A DNA stretch of 64,000 nucleotides from Marsupella aquatica (taxonomy: Eukaryota; Plantae; Marchantiophyta), in assembly GCA_973895155.1 (NCBI GenBank), contig OZ316893.1, forward strand, positions 5,780,171 to 5,844,170, given 5' to 3'. Of the stretch, positions 2,984-29,486 are shown piece by piece. Numbering within the stretch: the stretch's first letter is position 1; the number at the start of each line of letters is the position of its first letter. Under the pieces are notes generated by a model. It did no database searches. It was not told the origin of the DNA and saw nothing but the letters and a program-made list of their open reading frames with translations. The position numbers and the translations under genes are program-made.

Positions 2984-3547
2984 TCGCTCCATTTGCGGGC
3001 CGGTATTGGGGGTATTTTCAGAGCTCATGGGGGTCGGGCCATCCGTCCAGTAGTTGCCTCGGAACTTTTCAGGCTGTAAAAAGTAGTGACCAGCTGATGT
3101 TCCCCTCCGAAGAATGTCGAACACTGCAAATGCATGTTTTGCTTTGCTCATAGCTCATGGTTTCTCGTTGTGTTGTTATTTGTGTATTTCAGTGGATAGC
3201 ATTGCGCTTGCCTTGGACACAAGTTGCATAAATACATTGTGAAAGACTCTTCATTCAAGAAACATGATTGATGACATTAATCCCATATTCAGAAAGAACG
3301 ATCAGATTGGCATACGACAATCTCTGAATGAGCGTATGTTAGTCTCCCTAGAGTAAGGAAAAAATAGATGTCATTTTAAACAAAGATTTCTAAAAAACAA
3401 ATTGTCCCCTTCCCTTTTATATCCATCCCCTTCATTTACCCTAAGCGTTGTCGCATCAGCCACACATAAATAAAGTCTCACTATGATTAGTTACAAAGAG
3501 TAAATGAAAATATAAGTTCTCACTATGATTCTTTCGAAAGGTATCTG

Positions 3548-4371
3548 TGCCATGTGTAGTTTGAAGTCCTGGAAATCACGGTATGGACGGCAACCAGGCG
3601 ACGTCCCCGACGGCCTCCGAGCAGGGTCGTCCAGGCCGGCCTCATCCAGAGGACCGCCTTTTATGTTGAATCCGAAGAGGCTGTCTCGTCTTTACTCCCC
3701 AATGTGGAAGAGGTGAGGAAAACACATTATCCAGGATGTGGAGTGGCTTTGATTGGACTATGCCATGTGTAGTTTGAAGTCCTGGAAATCACGGTATGGA
3801 CGGCAACCAGGCGACGTCCCCGACGGCCTCCGAGCAGGGTCGTCCAGGCCGGCCTCATCCAGAGGACCGCCTTTTATGTTGAATCCTAAGAGGCTGTCTC
3901 GTCTTTACTCCCCAATGTGGAAGAGGTGAGGAAAACACATTATCCAGGATGTGGAGTGGCTTTGATTGGATTATGCCATGTGTAGTTTGAAGTCCTGGAA
4001 ATCACGGTATGGACGGCAACCAGGCGACGTCCCCGACAGCCTCCGAGCAGGGTCGTCCAGGCCATCCTCATCCAGAGGACCGCCTTTTATGTTGAATCCG
4101 AAGAGGCTGTCTCATCTTTACTCCCCAATGTGGAAGAGGTGAGGAAAACACATTATCCAGGATGTGGAGTGGCTTTGATTGGACTATGCCATGTGTAGTT
4201 TGAAGTCCTGGAAATCACGGTATGGACGGCAACCAGGCGACATCCCCGACGGCCTCCGAGGAGGGTCGTCCAGGCCGGCCTCATCCAGAGGACCGCCTTT
4301 TATGTTGAATCCGAAGAGGCTGTCTCCTCTTACTCCAAGCCAGCCTCCGTAAGGAAAACACATTATCCAGG
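3548..4371 (+). repeat. Tandem repeat, 213-bp unit, ~3.9 near-identical copies
   Basis: Units start with TGCCATGTGTAG at 3548, 3761, 3974 and 4187. Each contains ATCACGGTATG. Confidence 0.97.
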
Positions 4372-7027
4372 TTATTCATTAGGAGTGGATTTGCACGATA
4401 GATGTGGATGTGAAAAAAGATGTCATTGTTGTGGCCATTTTATGCTTGGGGCCAGTGATTGTGTCATTGGTCGATTATAAGGTTATTGCAAAAAAGAACT
4501 TACTATGTAGTAACAAATACTTCATAGAGAGATTTCAAAAAAATATTAATACTTTTTATCAGCTCAATAGCCTTTTTCCACTTTGCTAATTTTTTGGTGG
4601 CAAATATAAACAGGTTATTCATTAGGAAGAGTGAGATTCAACAATTTGCGCATAAGGTACAAGAGTAAAATAACAGATGAAACTAAAAGTAATCATGAAC
4701 ACAAGTAGAGGTACTTGTGTGTACTTACCCTAGGTAATGAACTGGCCGCTGGATTCGCCATATAGCAGTTTCATAATTTAGTTCTCAGCTCAATACCCTT
4801 TTCCCACTTTACTACAAATAGCGTCTTTTCAACTGGAAACTCTAATTTGTATTCTTGTTTTTCTATAAGTTTACTTTACTTGAATGGGTAAACCCTAAAC
4901 CCTAAACATATGTCCAAAAGTAGCATTGGGGTCTCATCAAATTGTCTTCTTGGACCATTACAGTCACGTGTCAACTCACATCCCTTCCAATCACCTTGAT
5001 ATTAGAATTGTACTATGGCATGTTAGTACCATAGTCTAGGGGCGGATTGAAACTCACCTGTGCCCCAAGGCACTTTCATTCCTTTAGTGTGAACTCTTTT
5101 GCTCACTCCCATGTAAAAAAATCAGAATTGTCATCGTTGGCATCTGTATTTTATTGCCAGATGGCATACGGCAGTTTGTTACGTATCATTGCTTGGTCCA
5201 GTGAATGACTTAAATATATTCCCGATGTTTATCCTGGTATGGATGTTGGGTGTCGCATATGCCCTATCCCGATGCGCAATTTAGGCCACGTACTAACTCC
5301 CCACCCCCTCCCCTGACGCGAATCATACACGATCTTTGCGGCCGTCGTATTTACATACCATGATATTACCAAGTGCTCCTTTACACGGACAGAACTAATT
5401 CAAAAAATGTAAGTGGGGCATACAATTGTCATGTACATCCGGTATGACATAAAGTGTTCCACATAATTTTCCGAGACAATTGTACATCTTTCGAGCGATC
5501 TTTTCAGGCGTCGTCCGCCACAAAATGTGTTCTGCACAGGGTTTCGTTCATGTCTATTAAGTGGCAAGGTCGATGATGTGCCAGTTCGTGGGGCTGTAAA
5601 TTTGGGCGTCCACAACCGATACATTATTGATCGCTACAGGAGCTCTCGGAGCAAATTCAATTGCTAATGCGAGAATGTAAGTGGGGCATACAATCATCGA
5701 CCACTCTTGCTGATCGCAATAGTGGAGACATCACATCAGGAATGCAAGGCTCTGTTCGAGCCCAGCCTCACAAATGGATGGATGTAAATCCCTGGAAGCG
5801 CTTTGCATCTCCCTGCAATAGCACACGAGGTACTGCTCTTGGGAGGAGTGGACCGAGACCTCCATTTTGTTGCTGGGAAATGTGATAGCAAAAATGGAGA
5901 CTTTATTCACAGTTTATGCTTTACATGTGTCAATCATCATCTGCAATGCCCTGGGATAGGTGCAGTATCGGCATCAACCCCTCAAACGTCTGGCTGCACT
6001 CAACCTCCTTGGGCTCTTCTTCGATTGTAAACCCTGCAGAACGTAACTTGTGGGGCATAATGTTCTTCGAAAGTTCGTGACGACGTTGTGCACGATCCAT
6101 CCCGGGTATCTCTTTTGCAGTGGGCGTGAGGAATGTCCGCCTCGGGAAACGTAGTACTAGGTGACTGCCGTTCTCGTCCTCACAAGGCGACAACAAATGT
6201 AATGGCCAATGCACAAACTTGCCTTGTGCAAGCCAGGAATACGAATTCTGAGCGCATGGCACTAAACCCATGTCCCACTCTGGTGAGCCATACCATGATT
6301 TGAATGACCACTCCAGTATCAGCAAATATGCCATTCCCTCGCTCAATGATGCCGCCATGGCATTCTTCACCACCCCCCTGCCCATCACCACAACCCCTCC
6401 CTTGCCAGGGATGCATAGTGCACAACTCGTGCCATCGACAACCTCTACACCTGCGACTCAATGCACCATGGTATCAACACGCTGGGACGGTATTCATACC
6501 ACGATTTCTCACATTTTCTTATACTGTATCACTATGAGTTACGTGTACACACCTCTTTGGCCGTCGTGTGGAGGTAATTCGGGTACTATTTCCACCAAGG
6601 GCCACTTCTGTTTGGCACCCAGCTCGCTGTCCTGAATGTTGTGTTGGGGCCCCTGGTCCCGTTTGTGGCAAGCCTCTTCCGTTGACGCAAGTACCTTCCC
6701 TAATACCTTCCCTATTAAGCCACATAAGATAGCAATAAAACATGAGACACTTTGTCTCTGTCATGAGTTATCCTCCATGCTACGATGTGGGTTTCTAGCA
6801 ATGCCAATACAGGAATATCCAATCTTCAACAACAATGAACGTGCGAGTAGGCATGGAACACGAGCCTAGGTACCACCACATACTGCGCTTGTATGTCAAA
6901 GTGGGTGTGATGTTTCCGATTAACGCCTCGTCCTCTACAACAGCCCTAGTGACTGCTGCCGCACCGCCCATGTATCTTGATTCGCTCGGAAAACGAGTAT
7001 TGCATCAGATCCAAGCAATGCTCTCGT

Positions 7028-7480
7028 CATACCACGACATAAACACAAAACAATGTCGGATATCATTGTGCGGCACCACCTGTTGGGCAGCCACTGTGCA
7101 TATCCCCGCGAGGCGAGTGTGCATGCGTAGCGCAATTCGAGGTATCTTCGACCACAATACCGGCACTGTCGTCGAGCTGCGGGCCATCTTGGCCCATCTC
7201 CTCCCCTGCACCGGGGCAAACGCGGTTTTGAGTCCCTTCCCCATTGGAGCATATACATAATGGCTTCTCCGCTATCAACATACCACGACATAAACACAAA
7301 ACAAGTCGGATATCATTGTGCGGCACCACCTGTTGGGCAGCCACTGTGCATATCCCCGCGAGGCGAGTGTGCATGCGTAGCGCAATTCGAGGTATCTTCG
7401 ACCACAATACCGGCACTGTTGTCGAGCTGCGGGCTATCCTGGCCCATCTCCTCCCCTGCAACGGGAAAATGCGGTATTCA
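7028..7480 (+). repeat. ~200-bp direct duplication (7028-~7230 and 7279-~7480)
   Basis: Near-identical copies, both starting exactly at CATACCACGACATAAACAC. Confidence 0.92.
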
Positions 7481-7638
7481 GCCCCGTTCTTGGCACACAC
7501 CACGAGAAGTTTATAAAGGATTTCATGAATTCAATGTAAGGTAAATTGGTATAACTTGGACTCTGACAGGGAAATTCAGAAGTTACCCAGATGCGCTTCC
7601 ACAAGAGTGAACCCGTATTTTTGCTGGAACCGGCGATA

Positions 7639-8806
7639 CTAAATCTCCCACCTTAGTGACCCTTTGTTCTCGTTTGTAGGGACAATTATCCTTCCAGGCT
7701 TCTCGGGTGGGCGGGGGATTTCGTTCACCCATGCAGCCAAACATTCAGTATACGACCTTATATTTCGGCCGGCATACCTATACATTTCAACCTCGTAATG
7801 AATATCAACAGGATCAAAGCCTGGCCTCCATTTCTCGTCGTCGTCAGATATCTCCTTCTCTGCATCTCCAAATTTTCCCTACTCAAAATTAAATAAAACA
7901 TTCGAGTTTAGATTCGTGGACTTGCAATTACATACCATTACAATTACTAAACTCTTCACAAAGTTCATAGTTTCAACATCTTCAGATCCCTGTCTATTGT
8001 ACCTCTGCTGTGGCAGTCTCTTTACTCTCGACAATACCGAGCGCCTGTAGCCGACGCATGCGGTGCTTGAGACCTTCTGTCCCGTTCCTCCTCTTTTGCT
8101 CCATTCCCTCTGCACTAAATTTCCAGTCGTAGAAGGAGAGGTGCAGTGTGTGGTGGATTGTCTCTACAGGGTTGCTGCTGAATGACAAATACCAAAGTGC
8201 CTTTTCTGCAGCTAACATGTATCCTACCATTGCTTCAAACATGTCATCCACTGACTCCTTCCCCTGCCCCAGTGCATGCAATACCTCTTGCATGACTGCA
8301 ACAAGACCTTCCGCTGAACCAATCAGCCCCAACTCCACATTAACCCGTTCAAACCATTCTTGTCTGGTCATACCATCTGCCAATTCAGAGATTTTGGAGG
8401 CAATCAAGGCCCTGAAGTGGTGAATATTGGCTCCGGACAGAATTATTCTAAGGTGACGTGTGAACCAAACTCTGAACTGTGGACTGTATAGCATTGCAAA
8501 CCCTTCCAGATATGGCAATTCCAATGCATGCATTGCAAGATAAAAGTGTGGCATTGAAGTAGGCGATGGAGGACAACCAGTGCGCAGATAAGTTAGATGC
8601 AAAGTGAGGGACTCTTCTACAATACGTGCTCTCCGACGATTTAGTTTCCCACACATGTACCGACGCCATCTGTGAGGGAAAAACCCATTGGTGGCCCTGA
8701 AAAGCCTGATCATCTCTTCTGTGGTGGCCTCCCGTGAAGTGGTGCCCTCCACCTTCTTCCTCCCTGGCTTCACGTTGTCGTGGTAACTTTGGTGCAAATA
8801 GTACAC
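7639..8806 (-). CDS. Orphan family paralogue A, C-terminal part (exons ~8806-8003 and 7878-7639); 5' end unresolved, possibly a pseudogene
   Basis: Aligns by eye with 28764-27291 (EEMIRLFRATNGFFPHRW vs EEMLKLMRTRHGFFPWRW; FYDWKFS vs YLDWRFS; HRMRRLQALG vs HRRRRLLELG). A GT-AG intron at 8002-7879 leads to exon 2 GKFGDAEKEISDDDEK...ENKGSLRWE. Confidence 0.7.
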
Positions 8807-10388
8807 CTAAGTTACACGGGTATATTTTGGGTTTGCAACATCTCGACTTAAGATGACAAATAAGACCATAAGTCAGGTACCTATGCTTGTAGCGGGTTGC
8901 CGATTCATAAAGAAACGAGGAACGAGAGGAGGAGGCAACAACTCTAAGGCAAGAAAGCAACAATGGACGGAGTGCACGGGGCGCCAGTTGGATTTCCAAA
9001 TCACGTTGAATTTCAGTTTCGGGTTATGGAGAAAGTTCATTTTCGGCAATTCATCGTGCATCACTTTGGTGTGCGATTCCTTCGGGAGGTTGAAGAATCC
9101 GCTCAACCTTTGTTCTTATCCACGCTTACATATACACATAAGTGGGTTATATGTTTTTATATTTTAACATAATAGCTAGTTTGGTGATTCATCATGCCTA
9201 GTTACAAAATTTAGGCATCCTATGATGGGTTAGAGTGACGACAAAGCACTTCTAAATAAAGTATTGTGGGCTATATGAATAATTATCATAAACTAGAGTA
9301 TAGGCCTACTAGGTGGCTTTACTTTTCCACTAGATTTGTGACATAGCAAAATATATAGGGATACGTGGCATACATGTGTAAAAAGGCCTTGCATGGTTGC
9401 ATGTCCATTTAGAATCAAACACATGGCCAATTAGGTGTCGAAAGGAGGATACGCATGGAAACATGCCCAATAGCATCCAAACACCTTGTTGTTTACATGT
9501 TCAAATATTATTGGACCATGTGTACCAAAGGGGTGAGTCATTACCCCTCCAAAGCACTATAAATAAGAAGCCTGCCCCTTGGGGGTGGCATGGTGAGTTT
9601 CTTTGTTATTCCAAACTTATGTGCAAGAATAGTGTGGGGAGTATAAGAATTCATAGAATGTGCTTGGAAGCTAGGGATGTGACATTGTTAGAAAGTTATT
9701 AAATAGTAAAGGTTGTACTATATAGGAAATCATTATGATATATTTTTCTTAGGGAAATAATATTCTAACTTTGATCACCTTGATGAGCACACCAAGTTTG
9801 CTTTTGGAATCATTTGATTTTAGTATAATACTAGAAAGTTATGATGACTTGAAGGTTTAGATTATGCTCAAATAGAACCATATTTTTCTGAGTTTGAATA
9901 TTGCTTATAATATTTTCCTAGAATAAGATGCATATTTAAATTTTTTTCCTGGAAATAGATAAGAAGCTATGTTATGCCTAGGAAAAAGTTTTGAGGGTAT
10001 ATCTATCTTTAAGTGAGATATATAGTATGGTGACGGTGACAGGGTCTTCGTAGCCTGCAATCTAGATAGGTCCACCATTTTTCTTTGTACCTGTTGATGG
10101 AGATAGAGTTTTGACTCGAACCTTTGAGGGATGATAGGATAGTAAATACTTGGCTTATTTGATATGGTACAAAGGAAATTGACAACCGTAGGTGAATTTC
10201 CTATATTCAAGAAGCTTGTACCGTGATTCTGAATTACAAGATAGACCTCAATAGAGTTCCTAGGCCTAATTTTAGTATAGATTGTAATGTTCGGGTGATA
10301 TGTCGCCAAAAAACTGAGTTTCGAGCCTTCATCATCAGAAACTTTGGGGAGTCGGCATATACCATGATCATTTCATCCCCGATTCCAT

Positions 10389-10730
10389 TCATTGTTCCCA
10401 TGACAATTGAACGATTTCGGGTAATGATCGTAGTGTTTTATTAGCACGTCGTAGCGTATTGTTCTTCCGACAGACAGAAGCCCGGGCTTTCCCGACATCG
10501 CCCACGAACTTCACGACAACGTACACCACACTCTGCACCAGATCCTCATTCTGATGTTCTGGGCATTCTCTCCAATGCCTGTTGATGTACTCCTTCTTGG
10601 AAAATATGCCTGTTGCGGGACATCCTGGAATAAGGCACTTCCAATCGTAAACTGTTGGATGTCGGGCACTCTGCACTTTTCGAAAATGAAGACCTTCCAC
10701 TGCTTCCAGGTGCGCCTTGCGTTCGGCCAT
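10389..10730 (-). CDS. Orphan family N-terminal zinc-finger-like ORF
   Basis: LEAVEGLHFRKV...DWKCLIPGCPATGIFSKKEYINRHWREC matches LEAIEGTHFRKV...DWDCVIPGCPSAKTWARKDRINEHWRRCH in the 28764 gene. ATG at 10730. Confidence 0.65.
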   Translation of the reverse strand: MAERKAHLEAVEGLHFRKVQSARHPTVYDWKCLIPGCPATGIFSKKEYINRHWRECPEHQNEDLVQSVVYVVVKFVGDVGKARASVCRKNNTLRRANKTLRSLPEIVQLSWEQ

Positions 10731-12052
10731 ACCGTGTACCCTGTGAAAATTGAACGGAAGATCGCCGTCTGCAGCTTGTAATGTCGGGTTGCAGATTCGC
10801 ACCAAACAAAAGACTCCTTTGCAGGTCGCGGCAGCTCAAGCTTCTAAGTGTTCCCTTCGTCGATGCTCGTACGAGGAGTTTGCACATCGTGAAAGCTTCA
10901 GGTTTTTACTATTCTGTTAGTCGATTCTCGTAGGAGGAGTTATAGTCCCGCATTAAACTGTCGTTATGGGAAATCTCATAACCTGTCGTGGCGGCATACT
11001 ATGATTTGGCACTATATGGTAATCTATTGTTATCACGGTATGGATGGGTGTCATACACGTGCAGTTTGTGGCTACGGCTTCAAAAGTTCGGCGGTCATCA
11101 TTTTCGCACATGTCGGGGACACGGGGGTCCGGAGAGAGACCATACAATGATCACCAACATTGCCTTCAATTTTTCATTGAGTGAACTATGTATATTACTA
11201 TCTCTTATCTCTGAGTTTACCGGGAGGGCTGTCTGTGAAATGCATTTTTGGCCGCACTAGACTCATCGCACGAAATTGACGTTTTTTTCCATGTCCTACA
11301 AGTAGAGCATGTGTAGTTCTTTTGGTTCCCTTGTAGCCAAATGACCTTAGGTACTTGTAAAAAGACATCACGAAGCTCCCATAAGGGCTAAGAATAACTA
11401 CTATATGGCATGCCCACCATCCATCTTCATAGCGGTGTCCCAATAGTGTCGAAGCTGAACACTTGACTAGTAAACGCAAAGTCATTGGAGTTATTTTCTA
11501 CAAATCAGATTCCACAAATCATTGTACGGCACCACCTGTGAAAAAGAAATGTCTTGCTCCCCCCTGCAGGCCGTCTTGCTGCTTGGCCGTCTTGCTACTG
11601 GGGCCTCGGCCACAGCCCGCAAAATTTGTTTGGTGCCAAAAAATTAGGAAAGTTGTTTGATGTGGTAAAGGAAAGGGACGTAGGTTTAGGTTAAGCGGGG
11701 GAGGATTAGGGGGAGGTACTTGTGTGTTCTTTTTTTACAATTGCTCCATCCATTACAACATTGTTGAGACTAGCAAATTAGCAACTGGTTGATACATAAC
11801 TCTAGCGAGTGCTTACATGGGGTTCACTGGAGCACAACTTCGAGTTCTCATACACAAGTTCCGAAGAGTTGCACACAAGGACGTTCAACAAGTTGTTACT
11901 CCAGGCCAGCTAACACATATCAATTGTAATTTTTTCATACACACATGCCGCAAATAGCCCGAGAAGAAGCTTTGTTTGTATTTACTTCAATGCTGGTATA
12001 TTTTATTATACCCCTGTAATGTTATATAACCCCTTAATTAACCAGTAAGGGG

Positions 12053-12146
12053 ATTACTTGACAATATTTGAAGTTTTGGGAGATTGGATATTATGCAAAA
12101 CTAGCTATAAACCAATCAACAAGAACTTCAAATATTGTCAAGTAAT
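12053..12146. repeat. Perfect 23-bp inverted repeat with a 48-nt spacer
   Basis: ATTACTTGACAATATTTGAAGTT (12053-12075) and AACTTCAAATATTGTCAAGTAAT (12124-12146). Confidence 0.9.
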
Positions 12147-12906
12147 GTCCAATCATCCAAAACTTCAAATATTTGTGTAGAGCCCTTAAATGGTGTATTA
12201 TAGGGATTACATAACATAGTTAAAAAAAACCCCAAGCATTGCACTTTAGTGTTTGATTATGATGATTGAATGGAGAATATATGTGGAGGCCTGGAATGGG
12301 GGGGGGGGAAGTTAATTGTACACTCATTCACTTTGACATAGTATGGTTGACAAAAATTGGAGAGTCTAAATACACATGCACCTATTGGAGAGAAATTTAC
12401 ATGCATCCACATTATGTAATGCAATCTGATATTAGTGGATTTTTCCCTGGATTTTCAGAATTACAACAGTCTCTCACTAGACCTGTAGAAAAGATGTCGA
12501 GATGAAAAAAAGATGGTGAGGTGAGAATATCATGCAAAGATGAGGAAAAGATGGGGGAAGCGAAGTAGAGGAGAGAAAAGATATAGAGGTTAAGGGCATG
12601 ATGTTCAGGGCGACATGAAGATGTCGAAGTGAAAAAATTTATGGCAACATGAACAAAACATAAGATGTCAAGGTGACACATATTATTTACATTTTTGGAC
12701 CCTGCAAATTCAAATCACAACCACTCTATAAAAGAGCGGACCCTTGTATTATAGTTTAGGATTAAATTATAGAAGTAAATGATCTTTCCTCTGCATAGTT
12801 TGGATGGGCTTAGGGACTTGTGCTTTATTCCTTTACAAAATGCCATCTACTCTGCTTATCGATTTACAAAGCGTTGTCTCCACACGTGAGTTACTCAGAA
12901 CCACGT

Positions 12907-13417
12907 GAAGCTGCTATATGGTGAATCTAAACTTTCAAATTTTGCCTTATTCCGATTTTGTGTCAAGTATTTTGATTTTAATGTGCCTTACTAAAGTGGT
13001 TTTGAATTACCTTTTGTACCCCTTTTAATTTTAGTGAACTTACAGTATTTTGAAAGTATTTGGCTCCCCTCTTAAATGTTCGAGAAATGAGTTTGAACAA
13101 TGTGCACATCTAGTGTACTAAGTTCCCCTAGTGATCTCCTTTCCAAAATTTATGGTTTTACGTGAGTTGACTGCCATTACTTAGAAGGAAGTGAAATCTT
13201 GTACTGTATGTGCACAACTCTTGAGTAACTTTATACTTTCTTGGTTTTTTTTGCATGATGATTTATGGTTTTGTGTGTTATGGCACTCACTCTTAATTAA
13301 GAGATCTTATTTCTTGGCATATACTTTATGTGTACCTAGTTACCTACTTCTTTTATCATAAAATTACATATCACTACAAGACCATAAAAAAAGACGTGTT
13401 CCAACATGAACATGCTA
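12907..13417 (+). repeat. Diverged ~510-bp AT-rich block, copy 1 (copy 2 at 23469-23995)
   Basis: Both copies start GAAGCTGCTATATG..GTGAAT and end CACTACAAGAC...TGTTCCA..ATGA.CATGCTA. Confidence 0.75.
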
Positions 13418-13939
13418 AATCAGAACCATAAACCTAGACCTCGAGAAAGAGAGTGAAGAACATGAAGAGGGGCGTAAAAGTCAGGTTTACTATGTGCATT
13501 TTCATCCACCCCGTTTGCATAATCAATCCTGTTCAAAATATGGGTTCTGTCCAGAGCTGTGCATGTCAAGCATGGAATTGGGTCACTATTCATGACCATG
13601 ATTCCCTCAGGTGACGGCACTATTATTTTCATTGCAATCTCACGCCTATGATGAACTCCTAAAATACATACTATGAGAAACGTCGTGTGGAATCTTAATC
13701 AAGGACTGTCGGATCATACTGTGATCAATAAGTTTATTCACATGCACAACACGGGCATGGATAGTGCTAAACATCATCCTCATGAATGGGTCCGTAGTGA
13801 CCAGCTCGATACTCCATGATAAGCTGCATAGCCTCCTCTACGCTAACCGCGCAACCGGGCCCGTATGGTAGGGGGTATGTGATACGTGAGATGGGTCACG
13901 GGTGTTTCTGGGGTAACTGTGCTGCAAATCTCAACAACA

Positions 13940-14011
13940 TGGACTGGCTAGGATTTGAACCTGGGACCTCCCGTGTACAACGCCAGTGCACTACCATCGA
14001 GCTGCGAGCCC
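13940..14011 (-). pseudogene. Degenerate tRNA-like sequence (tRNA pseudogene or SINE head)
   Basis: Minus strand reads GGGCTCGCAGCTCGATGGTAGTGCACTGGCGTTGTACACGGGAGGTCCCAGGTTCAAATCCTAGCCAGTCCA. It has an A-box-like sequence and the B-box GGTTCAAATCC at tRNA spacing, but the acceptor and anticodon stems are mismatched. Confidence 0.7.
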
Positions 14012-18929: not shown

Positions 18930-19180
18930 TATACTATGTACGGTACCACTTCATACCGTGATAATCCTTGTTTTTCTCTTGCAATCAATGACTGCAACCA
19001 TATTTTGATGTATGATTACCAGCAGGGACGATAAATGCTTAACAATTAGGTATACATCGTTCACTGTAGACCATGTAATATTACAGATACTATGTACGGA
19101 ACCCCTGCATACCGCGATACTTGTAATGTGACTTTCAATCAATGAATGGAGCCACATTTTGATGTATGATTACAAGCAGG
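18930..19180 (+). repeat. ~100-bp dispersed module, copies 2 and 3 in tandem
   Basis: ATACTATGTACGG..CATACCGYGATA..ATCAATGA.TG..CCAYATTTTGATGTATGATTAC.AGCAGG at ~18930-19027 and ~19087-19180. Confidence 0.88.
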
Positions 19181-19443
19181 CTCCGAATTACATAAGGGTG
19201 CTCACAAACAATCCTGCTAAATGGACACGAAAATGGGGCAGCATACCAATCGTCATAAACCACATTAGATGTCTATAAATCAATGAATGCACATCTTATA
19301 TTCCTCCCTCCTTCTCACTCTGCATAGTACTAGGGGAGTGATAGAGGGCGTCACTCCACAAGTTCATCTCTCTTTGGACTCATGCGGGCCGTTGTAGTTG
19401 TCTTTATCATTCCACTAGCTCAATACCCGTGCATTGCACAACA

Positions 19444-19840
19444 GATGTCGTTCCTGATGTTGTTGAGAACAAAAGAGGTCGTGTCGTCCAAGAGGTTGTT
19501 GAAAATAAAGATGTCATGTCGGCCAAGTCATCGGTCGTTGAGAAGAAACTTAAGATGCTGTGTCGCCCAAGATGTGAGAACAAAAGGTGTCGTGTTGGCC
19601 GAGATGCCGGTGATAACAAAAGATGTCATGTCGGCCAAGAAGTCGTTGAGAACAACAGATGTCATGTCTCCCATTCAAGATGTTATTAAGAAAAAAGATG
19701 TCATGTCATCTAAGATGTCATTAAGAAAAACTAATGTTGTGTTGCCCAAGACGTTGTTGTTTAAGAAAAAAGATGTGGTGTCACCCAAGATGCCGTTAAG
19801 AAAAAAAGATGTGGTGTCGCCCAAGATGTTCTTAAGAAAA
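19444..19840 (+). repeat. Degenerate minisatellite (~33-36-bp unit)
   Basis: Recurring AAGAAAAAAGATGT(C/G)(A/G)TGTC(A/G)CCCAAGATG. The ORFs here are by-products of the repeat. Confidence 0.8.
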
Positions 19841-20675
19841 TCTTGTGCAAAAATGGGCGCACAAAATGAGTAAAACAACCACAAAGTATAACCAGTCAAG
19901 AATGATTTTTGTCTTAGTATTTTTCATTTTGTAATTCCTTGAAAACCTTAACTTCTCCCCCCCCCCCCTTTAGGCCTTTTGTACTATTTTTTGGTTTGAA
20001 CTTTTCTATTACATTATGTAATATTTGTAATCATTTAAACTCCTCCTAGGACATAGATTACCATGGGGTACAATGTCTAGGCATGGAAAATACTATTTCT
20101 ATGCATGGGGCTTAGTATGCATGGATAGTACTATACATAGATGGTCCATAAAATATTTGATTATTGTGTATTGGCATTCCCTGATCGACATTCCCAATTC
20201 CCCTTTAGTTCTTGCTTGGAAATTTCACACTCAATATAATTCAATTTTGTTTTATTCCTTCTCTTGGCCAGATTTTTTAATTTTTGTGCCCTGCATATTT
20301 GAATGACGACCACTCTAAAAAGTGGCGCAACTGTGTATTATAGGAGTTAATATATCTTCCTCTCCTTTTCGAGGTTATGAAGTTGTGTAAAAGACTTCAA
20401 CATGAACTCCATAAAGAGCAAGAGGAGTATACAGTGTGCGGTCAGCGATAATACATACTTCATGAAGTTCATCACGGTATGGAGCACCCAAACATGGCAG
20501 GGTCCATGAACAGCAAGAGGAATATCCCCATGCGGTTAGCGATATTACAAAATTCACGAAATTCATCACGGTATGGAGTGATACAAAGATGAGGTGTAGT
20601 AAACGTTCAACTACACAAGTAGTGAAGTAGTAAAAGCTCAATACACTAATAAGTTTAGCAAATGAGGTACAAATG

Positions 20676-22461
20676 TCATAAGACAATAGGAGGAGGGTCA
20701 ACTACAATCAGGGGAAGACTCGCTACAAATCCAAGTGCTAACTTCCCTTTGGCCCTATTGCCCTTCAAATACTGTCGGCGAAAAATATCCTGTCGGAGTC
20801 TCATCAGATCTGGGTCACTGGTCTTCCGGATGGGATGTCCATCCGGTCCAATCCAAACATAATAATCTGAGGGCCATGGAATGTCTGGGGCTGGAAGAGG
20901 GATAGGTGCAATGACCTTTCTACAATGATAAACCCAACTCCACAACTGCGGAACCTCAATCTCTGGCATGCGCAGCTTGTTGATAGGAAGCCATAAATAC
21001 CAGGATAACTAGGAACCATGTCATATGTATGTACAAAAGGGAGCGAGTGGGAACCAAACATCAGTGGAGGTAAGGGTGGTGCAAGAGGAATGCGTGTGTC
21101 AATCAGTGTAGTGATCATGGTAGCAAACGCGGCAGGAAGAGCAAAAAGGGGCTCAATATCGGCAGTAGAAGAGACAATAGGATGCTGAGACATCAAAGGT
21201 GTAGGAGCTAGAAATGGTACACTGGGGGGCTCTAATGTCTCAGTATTCGGATTAGGCTCGGGAATGGGTTCATTTCCTTCCCTGGTAGGGGAGGGAGATA
21301 GAACATCAGAGTGTGGTAAAGTGGCACCCTGAGTGGAAGGGGATGAAAGGGGAGAGGGTACAGGTGAAGGTGGTAAAGGCTCGGGGATGGGAGAAGGAAG
21401 GTGCTCGGGAGTGGGTGTACATGTAGGAGGAATACATGCATCAACTATGGGTACCTCTGGCTCCTCAACATCATAGGGATATCAGGCTGGGGGGAAGGTA
21501 CTAAGGGTGAGGCAGGGGGAAGTGGAGTGGAATGAGGATCCGCAATCAAACTCCGAATACAATCAAGTAACTGGGATGGGGTACAGGTCAAAAGTCGTGC
21601 AGCCTCGGCAACCAAATGCTGGTTGAAACCAGCCACACTAGCTAGTCTCTCAGCATCACCAATAAAATCAGTCCATGAAGTGGAAGAGGTGGAAGTCACA
21701 AAAGTGGAAGAAGTCGTCCCTGGTACCTCTGGTGGTGTCGCCTGCTGCACTAGGGGTGTCGGTGATGTCGTAGGTGGTGGAGTCAGCTCTCTCGCACACT
21801 CTGGCTGTGGAAGCTCAAAGTGTCTCACTCTCCTCCTCCAATCGCTCAGCTCCACTGGTAACAAACAATGTCTCGTCCAGTAGACATGCGCCAAGTAAGG
21901 TGTCAAATAAGTTTGGCTAGTAGTAGTGACAACCGCAACCTGCTTGGTGATGACCTCTGAAAGAACTAGGGCCCAGTTGATCTTCCTCTTGCCGGTCCAT
22001 GAAGCAATGATGGAACTGGCTAAGTAAACCATAACCCTAATGGGCTTGGTAGGATGAAAAATGGGTACAAGGAATCGGAGCAAATGAGCTAACTCCTGGT
22101 TCCTGCACTGATCAATCCTCCAACCAGTCCTCCGATCTCTGACACCTCGAAAGTAGCGAGCAGTCAAGTCCTCCCCAACGGAGTACAATCTCTCTCCCTC
22201 CTGACTCAACTGATAGACCTTGGCAACTATAGCAGGAGTGCAAACATTGGTCGAACCTCTAGTGGAACTTCTAAAAGTACCAGGGCTCGGTACTCGAAGA
22301 AAATCTGCAATGAGGGATCCATGCACCATGTCCCATGGGAGAAAAAGCAAGTGACTCAATCCCATCTCAACTAGGTTGCCTAAGAGGTGAAAATAAGCAT
22401 CAGGGCCAGAAGGTAGATTCACCCTGATGCTCTTACTAACTGGTAGAACTCGGGCAGCCAT
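20676..22461 (-). pseudogene. Retroelement-type accessory ORF with a Pro-rich tail, disrupted by two apparent frameshifts
   Basis: 338-aa ORF with FLVPIFHPTKP.R...RKINWALVL...LTPYLAHVY, resembling accessory ORFs of bryophyte Ty3/Tat-type elements (recalled, not searched). Coding-like sequence continues in shifted frames: EPEVPIVDAC...EPPSVPFLAPTPL from ~21470, then MPEIEVPQLW...PPPIVL to 20676. Confidence 0.55.
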
Positions 22462-23301
22462 AGAATCTGAAAATCAGAGAAGACTATGCAATTATCCTGA
22501 ATGGCTAAACATTGGGATTTCAGGTTGCCAATGACAAGGTCCTGGTGTAGCCACGATGCTACTGGAGAAGAAAGAATTGAGAAGATGAACTGGTGAGAGA
22601 GTACTAATCGGGCGAAGTTCGGAAATCCATAGCTTCCTGAACTTCAAGAAATCTCTGAACTTCACCAATTCAGTATGGCTTAACCACTTAACAAACTTCG
22701 TTCAGCTTTCAGGTGCACCATCCCTAAGCAGCTGCGGATGTAGAGAAAGAAAATCGAGTCCAAAAGGTGGCCTACTGAGTGCGCATTGAGTGTGGAGCCG
22801 GCGCCTTCCCTACCGGCCACCATGGACGTCCTTCAAGAAAGAAAATACCAAGTCATCGAGCCCGTCCCTCAGTGTTAGTTTTTGTAAGATGGACGTCCTC
22901 GACGGCTTTACGTGGGGCCGTCCAAGACGTCACCTGAAGGATATGGACGTCCATGGGGGAAAACATCGTCGCAGGTCGCCGGCCGGTGGGGTTGAGGATA
23001 GAGCCGTCCTGGACGGCCTTACTTCAGGGTCGTCAGGGACGTCACTTGGTTACCGTCCTCGAGGTCGCTTTTGTGGGGAGAGGGGGCTAAGCAGGGTTTA
23101 GGATATAGGGTTTAGGGTTAGGGGCGGGAGGTCATGGGCGGTGCTTACAGCGGACCGTCCAAGCCTTCAACATGTGGCCGTCTTTGAACTTATTGGAAAA
23201 CACCTTATTACCATTTAAGAGTAGCTTACAAAAATATTAAGTTTACAATTTATAGGGGGCTCTATAGGGTTTTAGAGTTTCTCAAAATATGCCATGTAAG
23301 T

Positions 23302-23392
23302 TGTACGACATCCCTGCATACCGTGATAACCCTAGTTCTTTTTATTTCAGTCAATGAATACAGCCACGTTTTGATGTGTGATTACCAGCAGG
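23302..23392 (+). repeat. ~100-bp dispersed module, copy 4
   Basis: TGTACGACATCCCTGCATACCGTGATA...GTCAATGAATACAGCCACGTTTTGATGTGTGATTACCAGCAGG. Confidence 0.88.
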
Positions 23393-23468
23393 AGTTCTAT
23401 AGTTCAACCATTCATAATCACCTAATTACAAGTTATAATAGAAAGATGAGGGGTTAACTTACTATTTC

Positions 23469-23995
23469 GAAGCTGCTATATGCTATATGGTGAATGCACA
23501 TTTCAGATTTTGTCTTATTGAGATTTTTGTGTCATGTATTTTCATTTCAATCTGCCTTATCAAGGGGCAGCCTTTGTATTCTATACATTTTTAATTAATT
23601 TTTAGACCCCTTTAGTTTTAGGTATTCTAGAGTGTTTTGAACTTATTTTGGCAGCCCCCTCTCACAATATGTGTTTTCTTAGAGATGAAACCAAAGGCTT
23701 CACCACCACGAGTGAGAGAAATGATGCTGAAGAACATGAATGCATAGCCTCTTAAGTTCTCCTCATGTTTTTCTTTCCTAGGTTTATGGTTTTTATTGAA
23801 AGGAGTGTCATTCATAAGGCACCCTGAGTTAAGTGCACACATCGTAGCATTGTTTGAGTGTACCTTTTCTTGGTCACTGTGCTTTTCTTGGCAGACACTT
23901 TACTTATATAACAGCACTTCTATGCTCTCATATTTTATTTACTTTCAGATCACTACAAGACAAAAAATAAAGCATGTTCCAGGATGAGCATGCTA
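23469..23995 (+). repeat. Diverged AT-rich block, copy 2 (copy 1 at 12907-13417)
   Basis: Shares start and end motifs with 12907-13417, including CACTACAAG at 23951. Confidence 0.75.
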
Positions 23996-23999
23996 TATG

Positions 24000-24300
24000 G
24001 AAGTATGTGGAGCAACAAGTTAAATTGCAAAGATTCAGCTTGTTTTATTGGAATATGTTGAGCCAAGTACCTAAACCGACTTTGTTTTATGGGAGAAAGA
24101 TAAGGTAATCTTTTGTGGGAGTATGTGCACCCACGGACTTCTATACAAAAGATGAGGAGAGAAAGGTAAGCTAATCTGTTATGGGAGTATGTGGAGCCAG
24201 GGAGTTGTAACGGAAAGATGAGGGAGAAAGATAAGCTAATCTTGTTCGGGAGTATGTGGACCCAAGGAGTTGTACTAGAAAGATGAGGGGAGGAAGATTA
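24000..24300 (+). repeat. Degenerate ~65-bp tandem repeat
   Basis: Recurring GGGAGTATGTG(G/C)A...AAAGATGAGG...AAGCTAATCT. Confidence 0.7.
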
Positions 24301-24559
24301 ACTTGATTTAAGGTGTAGTGTCATACTGTGAAGAACATACATGAATTCCGTGAATCCATGAGTGCAGGTCGCACATTAGTACTTTTTGAAGTGTGCTCGG
24401 CATCAATTCTGGTAGGTGTCGGCCAATGGGGGCGATTGGTATGTGAAGGGAACCTAAGCGGCAGTGCCTCGTGATCGTGATTTAGCGTGAAGGTATGGTT
24501 ATGATTATTGGACACAATTGCTGGCCCAGGTGAGGACGGGTGCACATCAAATGAAGACA

Positions 24560-24658
24560 CATACTATGTACGACACCTCGTGCATACCGTGATATCCCAA
24601 GTTTTTGTCTATCGATCAATGAATGCAACCACATTTTGATGTGTGATTACCGGCAGGG
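24560..24658 (+). repeat. ~100-bp dispersed module, copy 5
   Basis: CATACTATGTACGACACCTCGTGCATACCGTGATA...ATCAATGAATGCAACCACATTTTGATGTGTGATTACCGGCAGG. Confidence 0.88.
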
Positions 24659-25011
24659 GTGAAGGCGTACACCTCCGTCCTACTATCATACCATGACAAC
24701 ATGTATAAATCTCACGTATTAAGCAGTTTGGGCGCGACACGCGATTGGCACTGACTGACATAGACGCGCACTAACGCCTTTCCGCGATGCTCCGCGATGC
24801 AAGAATGTAAACATGCGAAGATGGTCTTCAGATTTGTACCCTGTATCCAATTGCATATAAACCTAGAGGAACGAGGTTCTGCACAACATAATTGTCGATA
24901 GGAAGTGGCCTACCTTCGTGAATGTTTATCACAGTGCTCAAACCTAAGCACATTGCAGGCAAGGGAGTTTGTGCTCGCTCACTACTCCATTTTAGCTTCC
25001 TTCCCACTTCC

Positions 25012-25353
25012 ATGGCTCCTCCAAACCACAAGGACGGTGCAAAGGCAGGCCATGACAAGGCCCCTGCAGCTCAATCTAATATCGCCACTAAGGGGCAGCC
25101 TTCAGGAGAACGGGCAACTCCACGACCACCTTTGGAGCAACAGGAAGGAGCGGTGCCTTGTCCCGCCCAGGCCCTGCGGGTCAAGAAGGCCCCCAGTAAG
25201 CGGGCGGTAAAGAAACCTCGCAAGGAGCGCGCAGGGAGCTCGGAATTTTATTTGAAGAGAGCAAAGGAGGAGGCGAGAGCTCATCATGAGGCCGACCATC
25301 CCAGTGACTCGCAGAATGATGATGATACTGACTTTGACTCTGATGGGTGGTAG
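25012..25353 (+). CDS. Small disordered basic protein (113 aa) with an acidic tail; function unknown
   Basis: ATG in CCATGG context. NLS-like VKKAPSKRAVKKPRKER, and C-terminus DDDTDFDSDGW. Confidence 0.45.
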   Translation: MAPPNHKDGAKAGHDKAPAAQSNIATKGQPSGERATPRPPLEQQEGAVPCPAQALRVKKAPSKRAVKKPRKERAGSSEFYLKRAKEEARAHHEADHPSDSQNDDDTDFDSDGW

Positions 25354-25779
25354 ACATACAATGATACATAGTTTTGGTATCCAATTTATCGCGGTTTGAT
25401 TAGATCAAATGTATGTTGTCGACCATGAACACTACAGTAGACCTCAGTGAAGGATAAGTAGCACAGCGAGGGACATGATGCCGGATTTTATCGACTGGTG
25501 TTGTGATACTACAGTGTAGTTTTGTTTTTCAGGGTTGTTGCCCTGATTTTTTAATCGCAGTTGAAATGTGGTAACTCAATTCTCCAAATTGCATTTTGAC
25601 ATTTGCCAAACCAGTGACTCGCAGAATGATGATGATACTGACTTTGACTCTGATGGGTGGTAGACATACAATGATACTTAGTTTTGGTATCCAATTTATC
25701 GCGGTTTGATTAGATCAAATGTATGTTGTCGACCATGAACACTACAGTAGACCTCAGTGAAGGATAAGTAGCGCAGCGA
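25301..25779 (+). repeat. 169-bp direct repeat (25301-25469 and 25611-25779)
   Basis: Near-identical copies 310 bp apart that duplicate the 3' end of the small ORF. Confidence 0.93.
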
Positions 25780-27290
25780 TGAGAGAACGATTGGATAAAT
25801 TATCACCAACACGTAATGCATAACATGCCCCTGCCGTAGGTCAAACGTCGGAATGTGGAAATGCACTGTGAGCGGTCAATGATGTGATGGCATGAAATTT
25901 TGCATCGTGGTATGAAACGCTAATATTACATGTGACGGCAGAGGCTATTGCGGCTTCCAGAAAAGAACTGTCGGGCTCAAATTCTTCACGTCAAATGTTT
26001 CGTGAATGTGAATAATTAGATTATGGGGATCAGACAAGGATGGGTTAGTTCGCCCTAAACCCTAAGCTTCAGCGTCATGTCCTAGAACCAGACATTAGTC
26101 TTGATCAGGTACTCAACAAGAGCGCTGGGTCTCGCTTGTCGAGTAGAAAGTGGTTTTGAGTAAAAGGGATCCATGAGGAACAGGGTCGAGATTCATGGAG
26201 GCCATATATTCCTAAACCAAGTTTGACAAGAAGGCTATGGCAGTGGAGGGAGAAGGGCCATTTAATGGTTGTGTAGGAATCTCCGAGATGACGACCCTGT
26301 GTCAATCAGTACACAGGGAAGAAGCTTTTAGAGAAAGCCTAGTTTTTGTTTCGGAAAAAATATGACCCAAGCAGGAGAAGAGAGCAGTTAAGGGGAGAAT
26401 GATAGAGGTTAGTGATAGCTCTCCCCTGCTCTCCTCTCCTCTCCTCTCATCTCATTACACGAGAACTGAAATGTCACTGTTCCCTGCTCCGGCACAAAGC
26501 TGCTTCATGCACCTATCACAATAATACGCTACACAGGGCCCATGACAGAAAACACAACCAAATTGCAAGTCTGTGCTTACCGTTATTTTGATCCCCTGTG
26601 AAGCAAGCGTAGATCATGATTCCCCTCAAAGCACAGGGTTGTACATGTAACGCTGATCAAAGTGAGAGATATCGAGGTCTGTAGTGATATAATTTTGCAT
26701 ACTCCGTCCAGTTTGCTGTTGGCACAGTTTTATGGAGACATTCATACATACGGCGATGCCCACCTTTACCCTCCGTGCTCGTCCCATAACATATGTGTAC
26801 CGGGAAATGGATGAATCCCCCATACCACGATTATGAATAATTGCATTGAACATCGCGGTACGATACGAATAGCCAACAATACGAAAGGGCGAACTGTTGG
26901 AATAAATGCCACATACCACGATTATGGCAAACATTTGACAAACATAACCCGAATACAGGCACACTATTCACGGGCGCACAGAGGGATTTGACAGAATAAA
27001 TATGACTTTATCATTCGCCATTTAATTGATTTGAAATATGGAGAACGCTTTTTCGTATGAATGCGGGTTCTGTGTTCTATTTCAAAGTATCTGGACACAT
27101 GGTCGTGTAAGAATGATGCAATGCTCCAAAGCCTCAGAATTATCCAGGCTTGGTTTTGATTGCGCTACGTAAGAATTCAGGTTTGGAAACATTACGATTG
27201 TAGTAAGTATGGACTCGCAAGTTCACATATGTCTGGATCCAAAGTGCTGATGAGGCAGATGGTTCATGTATGGAGTTTTTTTCACCGCCC

Positions 27291-28764
27291 TTATGGCTTA
27301 GTTCGTGTCGAACGCCTAGTCCCATCTGTTGCCTTCTTTCGTTTGTGCCCAACCAACACCCCGGTTCGCTTGGTTTTACTTTGGCGCAAAGGAACAGCAT
27401 CGGTGGCTTGCAATAAGCTTTTCAAAAAAGCCTGAGCCCTATGCTCCCACTGCATGGAACCGCGGTTCTCACTAGCACTGACCACAAGCTTATCATCCCC
27501 GGAATCTCCATCGGCAACTTGGAATGTAGCTGCCCAGACCCCCAAAGGCGCTGGTTTCAATTTTGGGTTGTCCAAAACAAATTTGGTGACTTCCAGGTGC
27601 AATTCAAACCTGCTCACACGGGCTCTAAATTTCTCATCGTCGTCGGAGAGATCTTGTTCGGCATCGGTAAACCTACCCTATAGCAAGCACCCAATATAAG
27701 TGCAGAACCACAAGGCTGTGTTCATTACGTTGGCAATGGTCGTGTTGTAAAGTGTAATTCTCAAACAACGAAGGTTGTGGAGACTGAGCGGGTACCTGAA
27801 TTTTTGCTGTGCGTTCGTCCTCGTCCACGCCTAATTCAAGAAGACGCCTCCTGCGATGAGCAATTCCAGTTTTGGCAACGCTCATTTTTCTTTCCTTTCC
27901 TAAGGAGCTGAATCGCCAGTCAAGATAATTCATGGTGGCAGCTTCCTCTATCTCGCACTCTGGACCGGAATGGAAGGCATCATACCAGTACCGTGCACCA
28001 ACTTCGTCCATGTAAGCCTGAGCTTCGCGGAGTAGCTCAGTCAATTGTTCACCTCGGTCGTGACAAGCTGACACCACACTTTGTAATGCATGAAGCTTGG
28101 AGTCTGACTCGACTTTCTTCACCCCCTTCAGTGCGGCCCGACTGTCATGCAATGCAGAGAGCCTCGATCCCATATAGTCCTGGAAGGATTTCGCTTCTTC
28201 TCCACGATCGTACAACAAAAATTTCAAATGTGCCAGTAACCACACCCTATAAACGTGGTGTTTAAGGTGATCCCATGTATCCAAATATGGAGGGTCAACA
28301 GCATCAAACGCGAGCAACAATGCAGGAAGTGGGCCGGGGCGGGGTGGAGGACCCTGCTGAAGGTACCCCAAGTGGCGGGTGAGAAATTGCTTGACCACGT
28401 AGTTCTTCTCTTGTTGAAGCTTCAAGCTCTTGGCTTGCTGCCACCTCCAGGGAAAGAAGCCGTGCCTGGTTCGCATGAGTTTAAGCATCTCTTCATTTGA
28501 GGCGTTCCTCCCTTCCTTGCCGTCTACGGGCTTCCGCCCTCCCTTGCCAAGCTGTGTAATTTGAACGACCCCATTATGGCACCGGCGCCAATGCTCGTTG
28601 ATTCGATCTTTCCTCGCCCAAGTTTTCGCGCTAGGGCACCCGGGAATGACACAATCCCAGTCCAGCCTATTCAGGTGCTTAGCATTCAGGACCTTTCTAA
28701 AATGAGTCCCTTCAATTGCTTCGAGACAATTGGACGCAATTGAAACGGGCTCTGCGGCTTCCAT
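27291..28764 (-). CDS. Orphan family paralogue B, apparently intact, ~451 aa (exons 28764-27796 and 27677-27291), with an N-terminal zinc-finger-like motif
   Basis: WDCVIPGC...RINEHWRRCH (C-x4-C-x13-H-x3-C/H). Donor CAG|GTACC and acceptor CTATAG|GGT join in frame to GRFTDAEQDLSDDDEK...ENRGSMQWE. Basic NLS-like C-terminus HKRKK. Confidence 0.75.
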
Positions 28765-29139
28765 AGTGACCCCCAACAACCTCGCAATGGTATGGAATGT
28801 GGTTCTTCAGAGATGAGGGCTTACAAAATTGCGGGACATTAAACCCTAAACACATAGGACTGAGAGCTGGGCACAAAGACAAGAGGAGAAAGACGTTCAC
28901 GGGTCGCGGATGTCATGCTTTGACGAGCCGGTACAATTACCTTGTGCTTTTGCTACCCGTCTTTGTTTCATACCGTGACAAGCGTCAACGGAAATATGAT
29001 TATCTTCGAGGTACGAGAATTGTGTGCGGCAACGTTCTAGTCAGTTCCGAAGGTATCACAGGGCTGCCCGGTCTTTCCGTCTGTGCCTGACTCGAATTCC
29101 ATCCATGTCCGAAGCATGTGAGTACCTGCCCTTCAGAAC

Positions 29140-29363
29140 GTGGGCAGGGGGGGCGAAATGTTTTTGGTGAACCGTGGGCAGGCGAGGTTCGGGCAGAGGA
29201 AGATTGGGCAGCAACGTACGGGCAGCCGCGGTGCTGGGCAGCATAATGGCAGGTATGGGCAGATGGGCTGGGCAGGTCAGCCGGGTGCCCAAGGTTGCCC
29301 TGAACAGAAAGATCTTTACAAGCAATTCGGGCGGAAAGAACTTAGGTGCAAGAAATACTTCCC
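29140..29363 (+). repeat. Array of GGGCAG hexamers followed by GAAATACTTCCC; possible transposon subterminal region or end
   Basis: Eight GGGCAG in 29141-29276, plus inverted CTGCCC near 29064 and 29125. Confidence 0.5.
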
Positions 29364-29486
29364 AAACAACTGGGCGTAGCGTCCCAGCATGTGGGACTGT
29401 GCCAATACAGTAGAGTGCACACTTTTGATGTGCAATTACCGGGACTCGTAGGATTGTCATGCGGGATGCAATGACGTATTGTTCCC

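Follow-up and report, generated by a model that had tools for sequence, protein, structure and literature searches.

The window analysed here is a stretch of 64,000 bp from the liverwort Marsupella aquatica (contig OZ316893.1, positions 5,780,171 to 5,844,170), of which the part beyond 29 kb is host DNA that encodes VMA21, an ABC1 kinase, an amine oxidase and an F-box gene. The left part comprises a block (2400..29490, no strand assigned), likely a mobile element or a nest of related elements, whose approximate extent is judged from sequence depth on the right, from an isolated domain copy on the left, and from all 31 sites of one 11-bp word, CATACYRYGAY. The block also encodes two members of a zinc-finger-like protein family (genes A and B), the further genes D, E and F, and an open reading frame (ORF) termed G. 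The 11-bp word is a real and probably functional feature, and its surroundings suggest a protein-binding site near which CG methylation was kept low over long periods.

Distribution and setting of the 11-bp motif

A pattern scan of both strands of the window gave 31 exact matches to CATACYRYGAY, spanning 3575-28979, with 19 on the plus and 12 on the minus strand; 0.35 matches are expected by chance in the whole 64 kb, and the maximum over 100 shuffles was 2. The sites are located (strand after each position) at 3575-, 3788-, 4001-, 4214-, 5354+, 6289+, 6495+, 7028+, 7279+, 10995+ and 11032-; at 13715+, 14101+, 14191-, 15481+, 15683-, 17299-, 17421+, 17489+, 17745-, 18952+ and 19108+; and at 20471-, 20565-, 23317+, 24583+, 24687+, 25904-, 26821+, 26912+ and 28969+. 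The density in the block is about 1.2 sites/kb, and no exact match was found at 29-64 kb, i.e. in the host stretch; the confinement of the word to the block is judged within the 64-kb window. A first-pass annotation of this DNA had listed about 30 copies on both strands across 3500..29450, fewer than one match expected by chance, and no exact copy among the host genes at 30-64 kb, all of which is borne out, with its coordinates accurate to within 1 base. Of the two one-mismatch variants it had named, the one at 15078 does carry one mismatch, whereas that at 19108 (CATACCGCGAT) matches the word exactly.

Eleven of the 31 sites fall within duplicated units or internal repeats. After masking of the later copies of tandem duplications, and of a ~115-bp module (see below) in each of its five full copies, 20 independent sites remain in 23.5 kb. 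In the masked block, CATACYRYGAY is the highest-ranked R/Y-degenerate 11-mer (count 20), and an unbiased k-mer ranking also places pieces of it first; the best degenerate 11-mer in Markov resamples, a post-hoc control, reached only 6-7 (3/3 resamples). The same search in unmasked host DNA (30-56 kb) gave a best word of count 17, but this word matches a purine-rich tandem repeat at 52.5-53.7 kb, so that the resamples alone represent a clean control. A second dispersed word of comparable strength was not found in the masked block, where the residue consists of telo-box-like words and GC-rich local repeats. When the word was relaxed one position at a time, the variants C5>T and G9>A were absent, and information content ends at positions 1 and 11-13, with nearly empty flanks save for a slight bias towards A/T at +12 and +13; with these absent variants and sharp edges, the profile fits a binding site and not a decayed repeat.

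Predicted coding DNA takes up 27% of the block but holds only one of the 20 independent sites (P=0.014), in agreement with the earlier remark that the motif lies mostly outside the longer ORFs. A site is located 205-354 bp upstream of each of genes A, B, D, E and F, and the nearest site upstream of ORF G is found at 856 bp; sites are also present in introns and between convergent genes. Local duplications bear a site more often than expected (5 of 11 versus 1.25 expected; P about 0.003). Repeated sequences that carry the word comprise a 213-bp tandem repeat (3545..4371, no strand assigned; 3.7 copies, one site per unit) and a 250-bp tandem duplication (7020..7485, minus strand) of a 126-nt exon and a motif-bearing intron of gene B (sites 7028 and 7279).

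The ~115-bp motif-bearing module has its reference copy at 18915..19030 (plus strand). Further full copies lie near 15066, 19077, 23282 and 24545, and partial copies near 11057 (minus strand), 14068, 14236 (minus strand), 19270 and 29420. The five full copies are 93% identical in the motif columns, versus 70% in the rest of the unit and 24% in the flanks; a second block of the module, TTTTGATGTRTGATT, is conserved equally well (95%). The module contains a 12-bp internal inverted repeat and forms an inverted pair at 14068-14234. In 43 contigs of one sequencing run (X1), unrelated sequence precedes position 18915, the sharp 5' edge of the module, and hence the module is likely dispersed through the genome. 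A module-derived DNA pattern had no match among viral contigs, and its 18 metagenome matches were dismissed as chance, as none of the 18 resembles the window and 17 share the matched word alone. A near-identical 169-bp duplication at 25301-25779 carries two one-mismatch sites in opposite orientations.

The sites are surrounded by a halo of retained CpG. The observed/expected (o/e) ratio of CpG, computed on dereplicated non-coding DNA in which the sites were blanked out, is 1.05 at 0-50 bp from a site, 0.90 at 50-100 bp, 0.79 at 100-200 bp, 0.61 at 200-400 bp and 0.53 beyond 400 bp; it averages about 1.0 up to 100 bp from a site and about 0.55 past 200 bp. GpC is flat with distance. The near/far difference is also present in the low-depth core of the block alone (1.15 vs 0.59) and persists when the upstream 700 bp of six gene starts are left out (0.93 vs 0.51). 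None of 1000 random placements matched the CpG gap in any of these three settings, none of 1000 circular shifts that keep the site spacing reached it, and pseudo-sites centred on surviving CpGs reached it in 1 of 1000 trials for the whole block and in 0 of 1000 for the core. Around the 11 sites whose word is free of CpG the ratio is 1.13, and the survival of CpG-bearing words in unmethylated DNA therefore offers no explanation. In total, the halo withstood five controls; its width is about 200 bp. Methylated CpG is lost through deamination, and the simplest reading would thus be long-term protection from CG methylation, within ~200 bp of the sites, in the cell line that forms the gametes. The halo is the trace expected from long-term protein binding with local CG protection, and it suggests that such binding took place.

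Genes A and B and the block that carries them

Gene A (27291..28764, minus strand) is open and comprises, in the splice model, two predicted exons (28764-27796 and 27677-27291) for a protein of 451 amino acids (aa), with a predicted layout of an N-terminal C-x4-C...H...H zinc finger, a long helix, a helical bundle and a third conserved domain. Its paralogue, gene B (5933..10727, minus strand), has a longer C-terminus and about six predicted exons (10727-~10525, 8806-8003, 7878-~7620, 7455-7330, 7205-7080 and ~6450-5933), and is likely a pseudogene in this copy because of an in-frame stop at 7641-7639. Genes A and B share 32% identity over 259 aa and a common intron position. An isolated copy of the small C-terminal domain of gene B was detected at 2471..2917 (plus strand; domain 2600-2815; 36% identity to 6346-6149, E=2e-08 to the Calypogeia protein P0014), and related DNA may hence extend to about 2.4 kb. 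The several paralogues of a zinc-finger-like protein that were noted in the first-pass annotation are thereby reduced to two genes, the third item being this lone domain copy.

A profile search for the gene A family among 1.84 billion proteins gave 35 matches, 19 of which were identified: nine models of the leafy liverwort Calypogeia fissa, nine unnamed or hypothetical metagenome proteins, and one unrelated fungal C2H2 protein. For C. fissa, eleven A/B-family accessions were found, including two extra cluster members; the family loci there comprise CAM6096575, CAM6107239, CAM6096990, CAM6104356/7, CAM6082029/31, CAM6101903, CAM6093975/6 and CAM6103445. The family is multi-copy and dispersed in this species (36-56% identity), ten gene models being spread over contigs of six different lengths, and three pairs of adjacent models resemble the split halves of one broken gene. 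The models P0012 and P0014 each combine A-type domains with segments that correspond to 5933-6400 of gene B. P0011 and P0012 contain tandem peptide repeats in a variable region, the counterpart of which in gene B is the tandemly duplicated 126-nt exon plus intron, with a CATACYRYGAY site in each intron. Residues ~400-600 of P0014 (CAM6082029.1), between the repeats and the last domain, may resemble a degenerate HAD/FCP1-like phosphatase; this segment has no Pfam or NCBIfam match and was not detected in gene B of the window.

The AlphaFold2 model of exon 1 of gene A is confident (predicted local distance difference test, pLDDT, 89) and shows a small strand-strand-helix unit, joined by a basic linker to a helix of 48 residues and a helical bundle. 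In the zinc-finger unit the residues C, C/G, H and H are invariant in 10 sequences, with predicted strands and a predicted helix at 52-62. From this residue pattern and weak look-alikes (C2H2-type, 0.89-0.91 with few shared features; SWI5 finger, E=0.79), the N-terminus of the A/B proteins is a putative C2H2-type zinc finger. There was no Pfam match for the finger, and neither DUF1985 nor DUF287 was detected in any of 36 A/B-family homologues. A fold search with the exon-1 model gave nothing at E<=0.001 in PDB or BFVD, and the best VIA score (Z 8.3) is confined to a two-helix hairpin; the model appears to have no fold match, by which a new fold is not shown. A word-indexed search among proteins of near length gave no relatives of gene A, an alignment of the zinc finger gave no related loci in metagenome and viral contigs, and a PDB sequence search for TnpA-type comparison gave nothing below E=1.3. 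The small C-terminal domain of gene B may be comparable to the TnpA beta-barrel. No report of the A/B family or of CATACYRYGAY was found in the literature, in searches that did not use the motif itself as a query.

The extent of the block was estimated from summed contig depth over 12,001-32,000 in four public runs, a measure that does not equate to copy number. At 30-32 kb, where the host genes lie, the depth in the four runs was 18-20, 58-78, 75-129 and 2-5; over the segments at 15.3-18.7 and 24.7-29.3 kb it was 47-74, 126-296, 441-1324 and 2-28; and at 12.7-13.3, 19.3-20.0 and 23.3-24.0 kb it reached hundreds to tens of thousands. The core/flank ratio is ~2.5-4 in runs X1 and X2 and 5-13 in run X4. 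The right edge lies at ~29.4-29.9 kb, with the depth attaining flank level between the bins 29343-30009 and 30010-30676 in all four runs. Depth and variant patterns both point to a repeated block, and the depth suggests a low-copy repeated core with high-copy inserts. In contrast to the earlier description as one element of ~26 kb, the block is not uniform, with low-depth and very-high-depth parts mixed.

A comparison of 0.3-5.6 kb with 28.9-30.1 kb gave no terminal inverted repeat (TIR) of 14 bp with fewer than two mismatches, and the end pairs with a 2-3 bp target duplication all carried three mismatches. Paired CACTA...TAGTG ends with a 3-bp target duplication were likewise not found for the block; two CACTACAAGA words (13372 and 23951) are located within a high-depth repeat, each without a partner end. 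A scan for Helitron ends (hairpin plus CTRR) gave candidates at 1533 (plus), 20804 (minus) and 21645 (plus), and is non-specific, with eight more candidates in host DNA; none was located at the right edge of the block. No Rep gene and no defined ends were found at the block that would indicate a Replitron, a class described in PMC10288648. Among 255 ORFs of at least 50 aa at 1-30.4 kb, there was no match at E<=0.01 for a transposase, helicase, reverse transcriptase or VANC domain, and the sole match at this threshold was a weak zf-C2HC_2, below its own cut-off. No Rfam match and no tRNA were found in 1-32 kb, and a structured RNA is not supported. An endogenous giant virus was rejected on account of plant-type spliced genes and no viral match.

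The other genes of the block are short of known relatives. Gene D (16037..17170, plus strand; predicted exons 16037-16723 and 16895-17170) is an open orphan gene with no Pfam or NCBIfam match, and is skipped by one contig in one run (15776 joined to 17230). Gene E (17964..18700, minus strand) is a candidate for an RPA1 C-terminal-like OB-fold protein, as judged by its Atlas likeness (0.90, with 172 features in common; 43% of the cluster members carry PF08646); there was no Pfam, NCBIfam or PDB profile match, a word-indexed search gave one relative, and the structure model was unusable (pLDDT 36). It is likely a pseudogene here because of an in-frame stop (18554-18552), through which its relative P0001 reads. 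Gene F (25012..25353, plus strand) is a short basic/acidic ORF of 113 aa with no family assignment. ORF G, with a proline-rich neighbour (20804..22461, minus strand), lies in a higher-depth segment; it has no family match, the word-indexed protein search was also empty, and it may resemble an extra ORF of long-terminal-repeat (LTR) retrotransposons. GC-rich GGACG/CCGTCC repeats and telo-box-like words are found at 22800-23150, upstream of ORF G, and at 3585-3640; the repeats upstream of ORF G resemble, in inverted orientation, a segment of the 213-bp unit (77% over 56 bp), and similar GGGCAG runs lie upstream of gene A (29180-29300).

Comparison with known systems and rival explanations

In Arabidopsis, VANC21 and VANC6 are paired with target motifs in the Mutator-like VANDAL elements (Hosaka et al. 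2017, PMC5735166; Sasaki et al. 2023, PMC10398659). According to the former, the CG effect of VANC21 is local to its binding positions, VANC21 requires dense same-orientation arrays, and VANC proteins carry tandem peptide repeats in a variable region (PMC5735166). The block resembles this system in its short, element-confined, non-coding motif, which also occurs in introns and is spread by tandem duplication (5 of 11 duplications; the intronic pair in gene B), in a protein of conserved domains plus variable tandem peptide repeats that arise via exon-intron duplication, and in a local CG effect, which for the block is suggested by the CpG halo. It differs in that no DUF1985, DUF287 or Mutator-like element (MULE) transposase (VANA) match was found among its ORFs of at least 50 aa and the single-zinc-finger helical family is unrelated; in that its sites are thinly spread (1.2/kb) and occur on both strands, with same-strand runs that are local only; and in its bryophyte host, VANC being described as dicot-specific and TnpA-like domains and proteins as limited to flowering plants in PMC13547354. 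Judged by its predicted proteins and by the arrangement of its sites, the block is not a VANDAL. The first-pass proposal of a VANC-like protein with a dispersed self-tag is thus to be divided: the self-tag gains from the non-coding position of the sites, their spread by duplication, the repeated block and the CpG halo, whereas kinship with VANC and VANDAL is not supported, with DUF1985, DUF287 or MULE domains in 0 of 255 ORFs, mixed orientation and no dense clusters of the kind that both known systems require.

TnpA of CACTA/En-Spm elements is a regulator that the element itself encodes; it has a cognate word of 10-11 bp, and hypomethylation near its sites is chiefly of CG, much as is proposed for the block. 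Some Spm families hold the regulator gene alone (bioRxiv 10.64898/2026.08.24.746577; PMC13547354). TnpA sites are terminal, and TnpA binds DNA through a double helix-turn-helix (bioRxiv 10.64898/2026.08.24.746577); a small C-terminal beta-barrel is described as well (PMC13547354). In the block, the sites occur throughout and not in terminal clusters, paired CACTA...TAGTG ends are missing, and there is no Pfam TnpA or TnpD match. Several plant Helitrons bear RPA-like genes, according to PMC5148889, and the block shares with Helitrons a putative RPA1-C-like gene (by Atlas likeness), a patchwork of gene fragments, and no inverted ends or target duplication found. It differs in that no Rep/helicase was found among its ORFs of at least 50 aa and that the non-specific scan gave no hairpin plus CTRR end at either edge, but the missing Rep/helicase does not exclude a Helitron because there are non-autonomous copies without it. 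No dispersed cognate-motif system was found reported for Helitrons in the literature searched.

We favour the explanation that a protein of the element's own A/B family binds the word and keeps the promoters and introns of the element free of CG methylation, and assign it a probability of roughly 0.4. Of its parts, the word is very probably a bound, protective site, the block is probably a mobile or repeated element, and, given both, there is a good chance that the binder stems from the A/B family. The 11-bp word would be the docking site of a sequence-specific protein, most likely of the zinc-finger family represented by genes A and B, nearby CpGs would be kept unmethylated, and the halo would be the trace of CG protection over many generations. 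Where such sites are occupied, upstream of genes and within introns, the genes of the element would stay open to transcription, which VANC and TnpA achieve for their own transposons, and by this analogy the block system likely works like VANC or TnpA. Movement of the block itself would depend on an enzyme supplied in trans from another locus; among possible carriers a Helitron type, though short of even odds, is favoured most, in view of the putative RPA-like gene and of the fact that no inverted ends were found. More speculative, and rather unlikely, is the extension that liverworts harbour giant Helitron-like multi-gene elements with independently invented anti-silencing, in which a new single-zinc-finger helical family would bind a scattered 11-bp tag and shield it from CG methylation, and tag and protein would diversify by the same tandem duplication.

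Several observations weigh against the A/B protein as the binder or against the reading as a whole. One zinc finger typically reads 3-4 bp, and the 11-bp word would therefore need other parts of the protein, or dimers. Any bound factor, of host or element, would produce the halo, which hence indicates binding but not which protein binds; CHG shows no trend with distance from the sites, CpG o/e is low at some higher-depth sites (23317, 0.34; 19108, 0.54; 20471 and 20565, ~0.6), and host upstream regions attain 0.55-0.97. The element is known here from a single locus, its depth values are not copy numbers, neither a transposase or helicase nor element termini were found, and the motif definition and the coding mask were both derived from one and the same sequence. 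The low site density (~1.2/kb) and mixed orientation (19:12) also count here, as the preprint reports little binding of TnpA-Spm1 in low-density regions (about 2 motifs/kb, with the direction of the inequality uncertain; bioRxiv 10.64898/2026.08.24.746577).

The main rival to an element-encoded binder is a host transcription factor, for example of meristem or reproductive cells, that reads the word, copies of which the element would have gathered in its promoters and enhancers, with the halo as ordinary factor-induced hypomethylation and another job for the A/B proteins. This would agree with the sites upstream of five element genes (205-354 bp), with an enhancer-like low density and mixed orientation, with the equal conservation of TTTTGATGTRTGATT in the module (95%), and with the presence of the word in segments of widely differing depth. 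It is nonetheless unlikely in view of zero sites in 34 kb of host genes and upstream regions, a halo that remains away from gene starts, and sites that are also intronic or between convergent genes; furthermore, CATACYRYGAY is not known as the site of a plant factor. The word might instead be the subterminal site of a transposase or TnpA-like factor from an autonomous partner elsewhere, with the block as a pile of nested non-autonomous elements that each contribute sites at their ends. The module, with its sharp 5' edge, unrelated flanks in 43 contigs, 12-bp internal inverted repeat and inverted pair at 14068-14234, would suit such a pile, as would the possible likeness of the last domain of gene B to the TnpA beta-barrel, and transposases can hypomethylate their cognate sites locally according to bioRxiv 10.64898/2026.08.24.746577. 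Eleven sites of the low-depth core, however, have unrelated flanks and no module, and neither a 14-bp TIR with fewer than two mismatches between the tested edges nor a Pfam TnpA or transposase match was found, which leaves this explanation quite unlikely.

A host cluster of lineage-specific genes, recently duplicated as a segment, co-regulated by a common cis-element and with ordinary transposons inserted into it, appears improbable. Genes A and D are open and spliced, the A/B family is conserved to Calypogeia (36-56% identity), the low-depth core has just ~2.5-4 times the flank depth in X1 and X2, and bryophytes are rich in unique gene families according to PMC12513842, all as such a cluster would have it; against it stand the in-frame stops in genes B and E, the dispersed and often split Calypogeia copies, a core/flank depth that varies by run (~3x in X1, 5-13x in X4), and the RPA-like cargo and repeat-driven peptide repeats typical of transposon genes. 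That the word has no function and simply reflects duplication within the block and loss of CpG from a single ancestral repeat is largely refuted and has hardly any probability left: 11 of 31 sites do lie in duplicated units, and the Y/R positions are compatible with deamination of an ancestral CATACCGCGAY, but 20 sites have unrelated flanks, decay should also yield G9>A and C5>T, neither of which is present, and the halo around CpG-free sites is not accounted for.

In the literature cited here, transposon-encoded sequence-specific anti-silencers (VANC, TnpA, AtMu1 transposase) come from flowering plants. If binding by the A/B family holds true, a system of anti-silencing without kinship to VANC or TnpA would exist outside flowering plants; as a convergent liverwort system built on an unrelated protein, it would imply that the strategy is old or was repeatedly invented. 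Part of the bryophyte orphan-gene space would then consist of element-borne regulators, and a new compact factor for targeted demethylation would be at hand. The case is directly testable, with one intact 451-aa candidate and one 11-bp word, and the CpG-halo test provides a sequence-only route to such sites in other genomes.

Other repeats of the window

Left of the block, repeated GGACGCTT-N-AAGCGTC hairpins without motif sites occupy 1434-2185, and the hairpin at 1533 is followed by CTAA|T, as in a Helitron 3' end. Two pieces of a very-high-depth repeat that ends CACTACAAGA...hairpin...CTAWAT are located at 12912-13420 and 23481-23998, with loose contig ends at 23998 (78-87 contigs per run, three runs). 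Motif-free tandem repeats of 36 bp and 66 bp lie in high-depth segments at 19445-19843 and 24091-24298. Directly upstream of VMA21, an exact 200-bp tandem duplication was found (29487-29886), within which contigs of two runs break at 29858. The host intergenic DNA contains a 42-bp array at 50086-50295, a tRNA-Met gene at 51659-51731, and a purine-rich tandem array of 43-46 bp units at 52564-53764.

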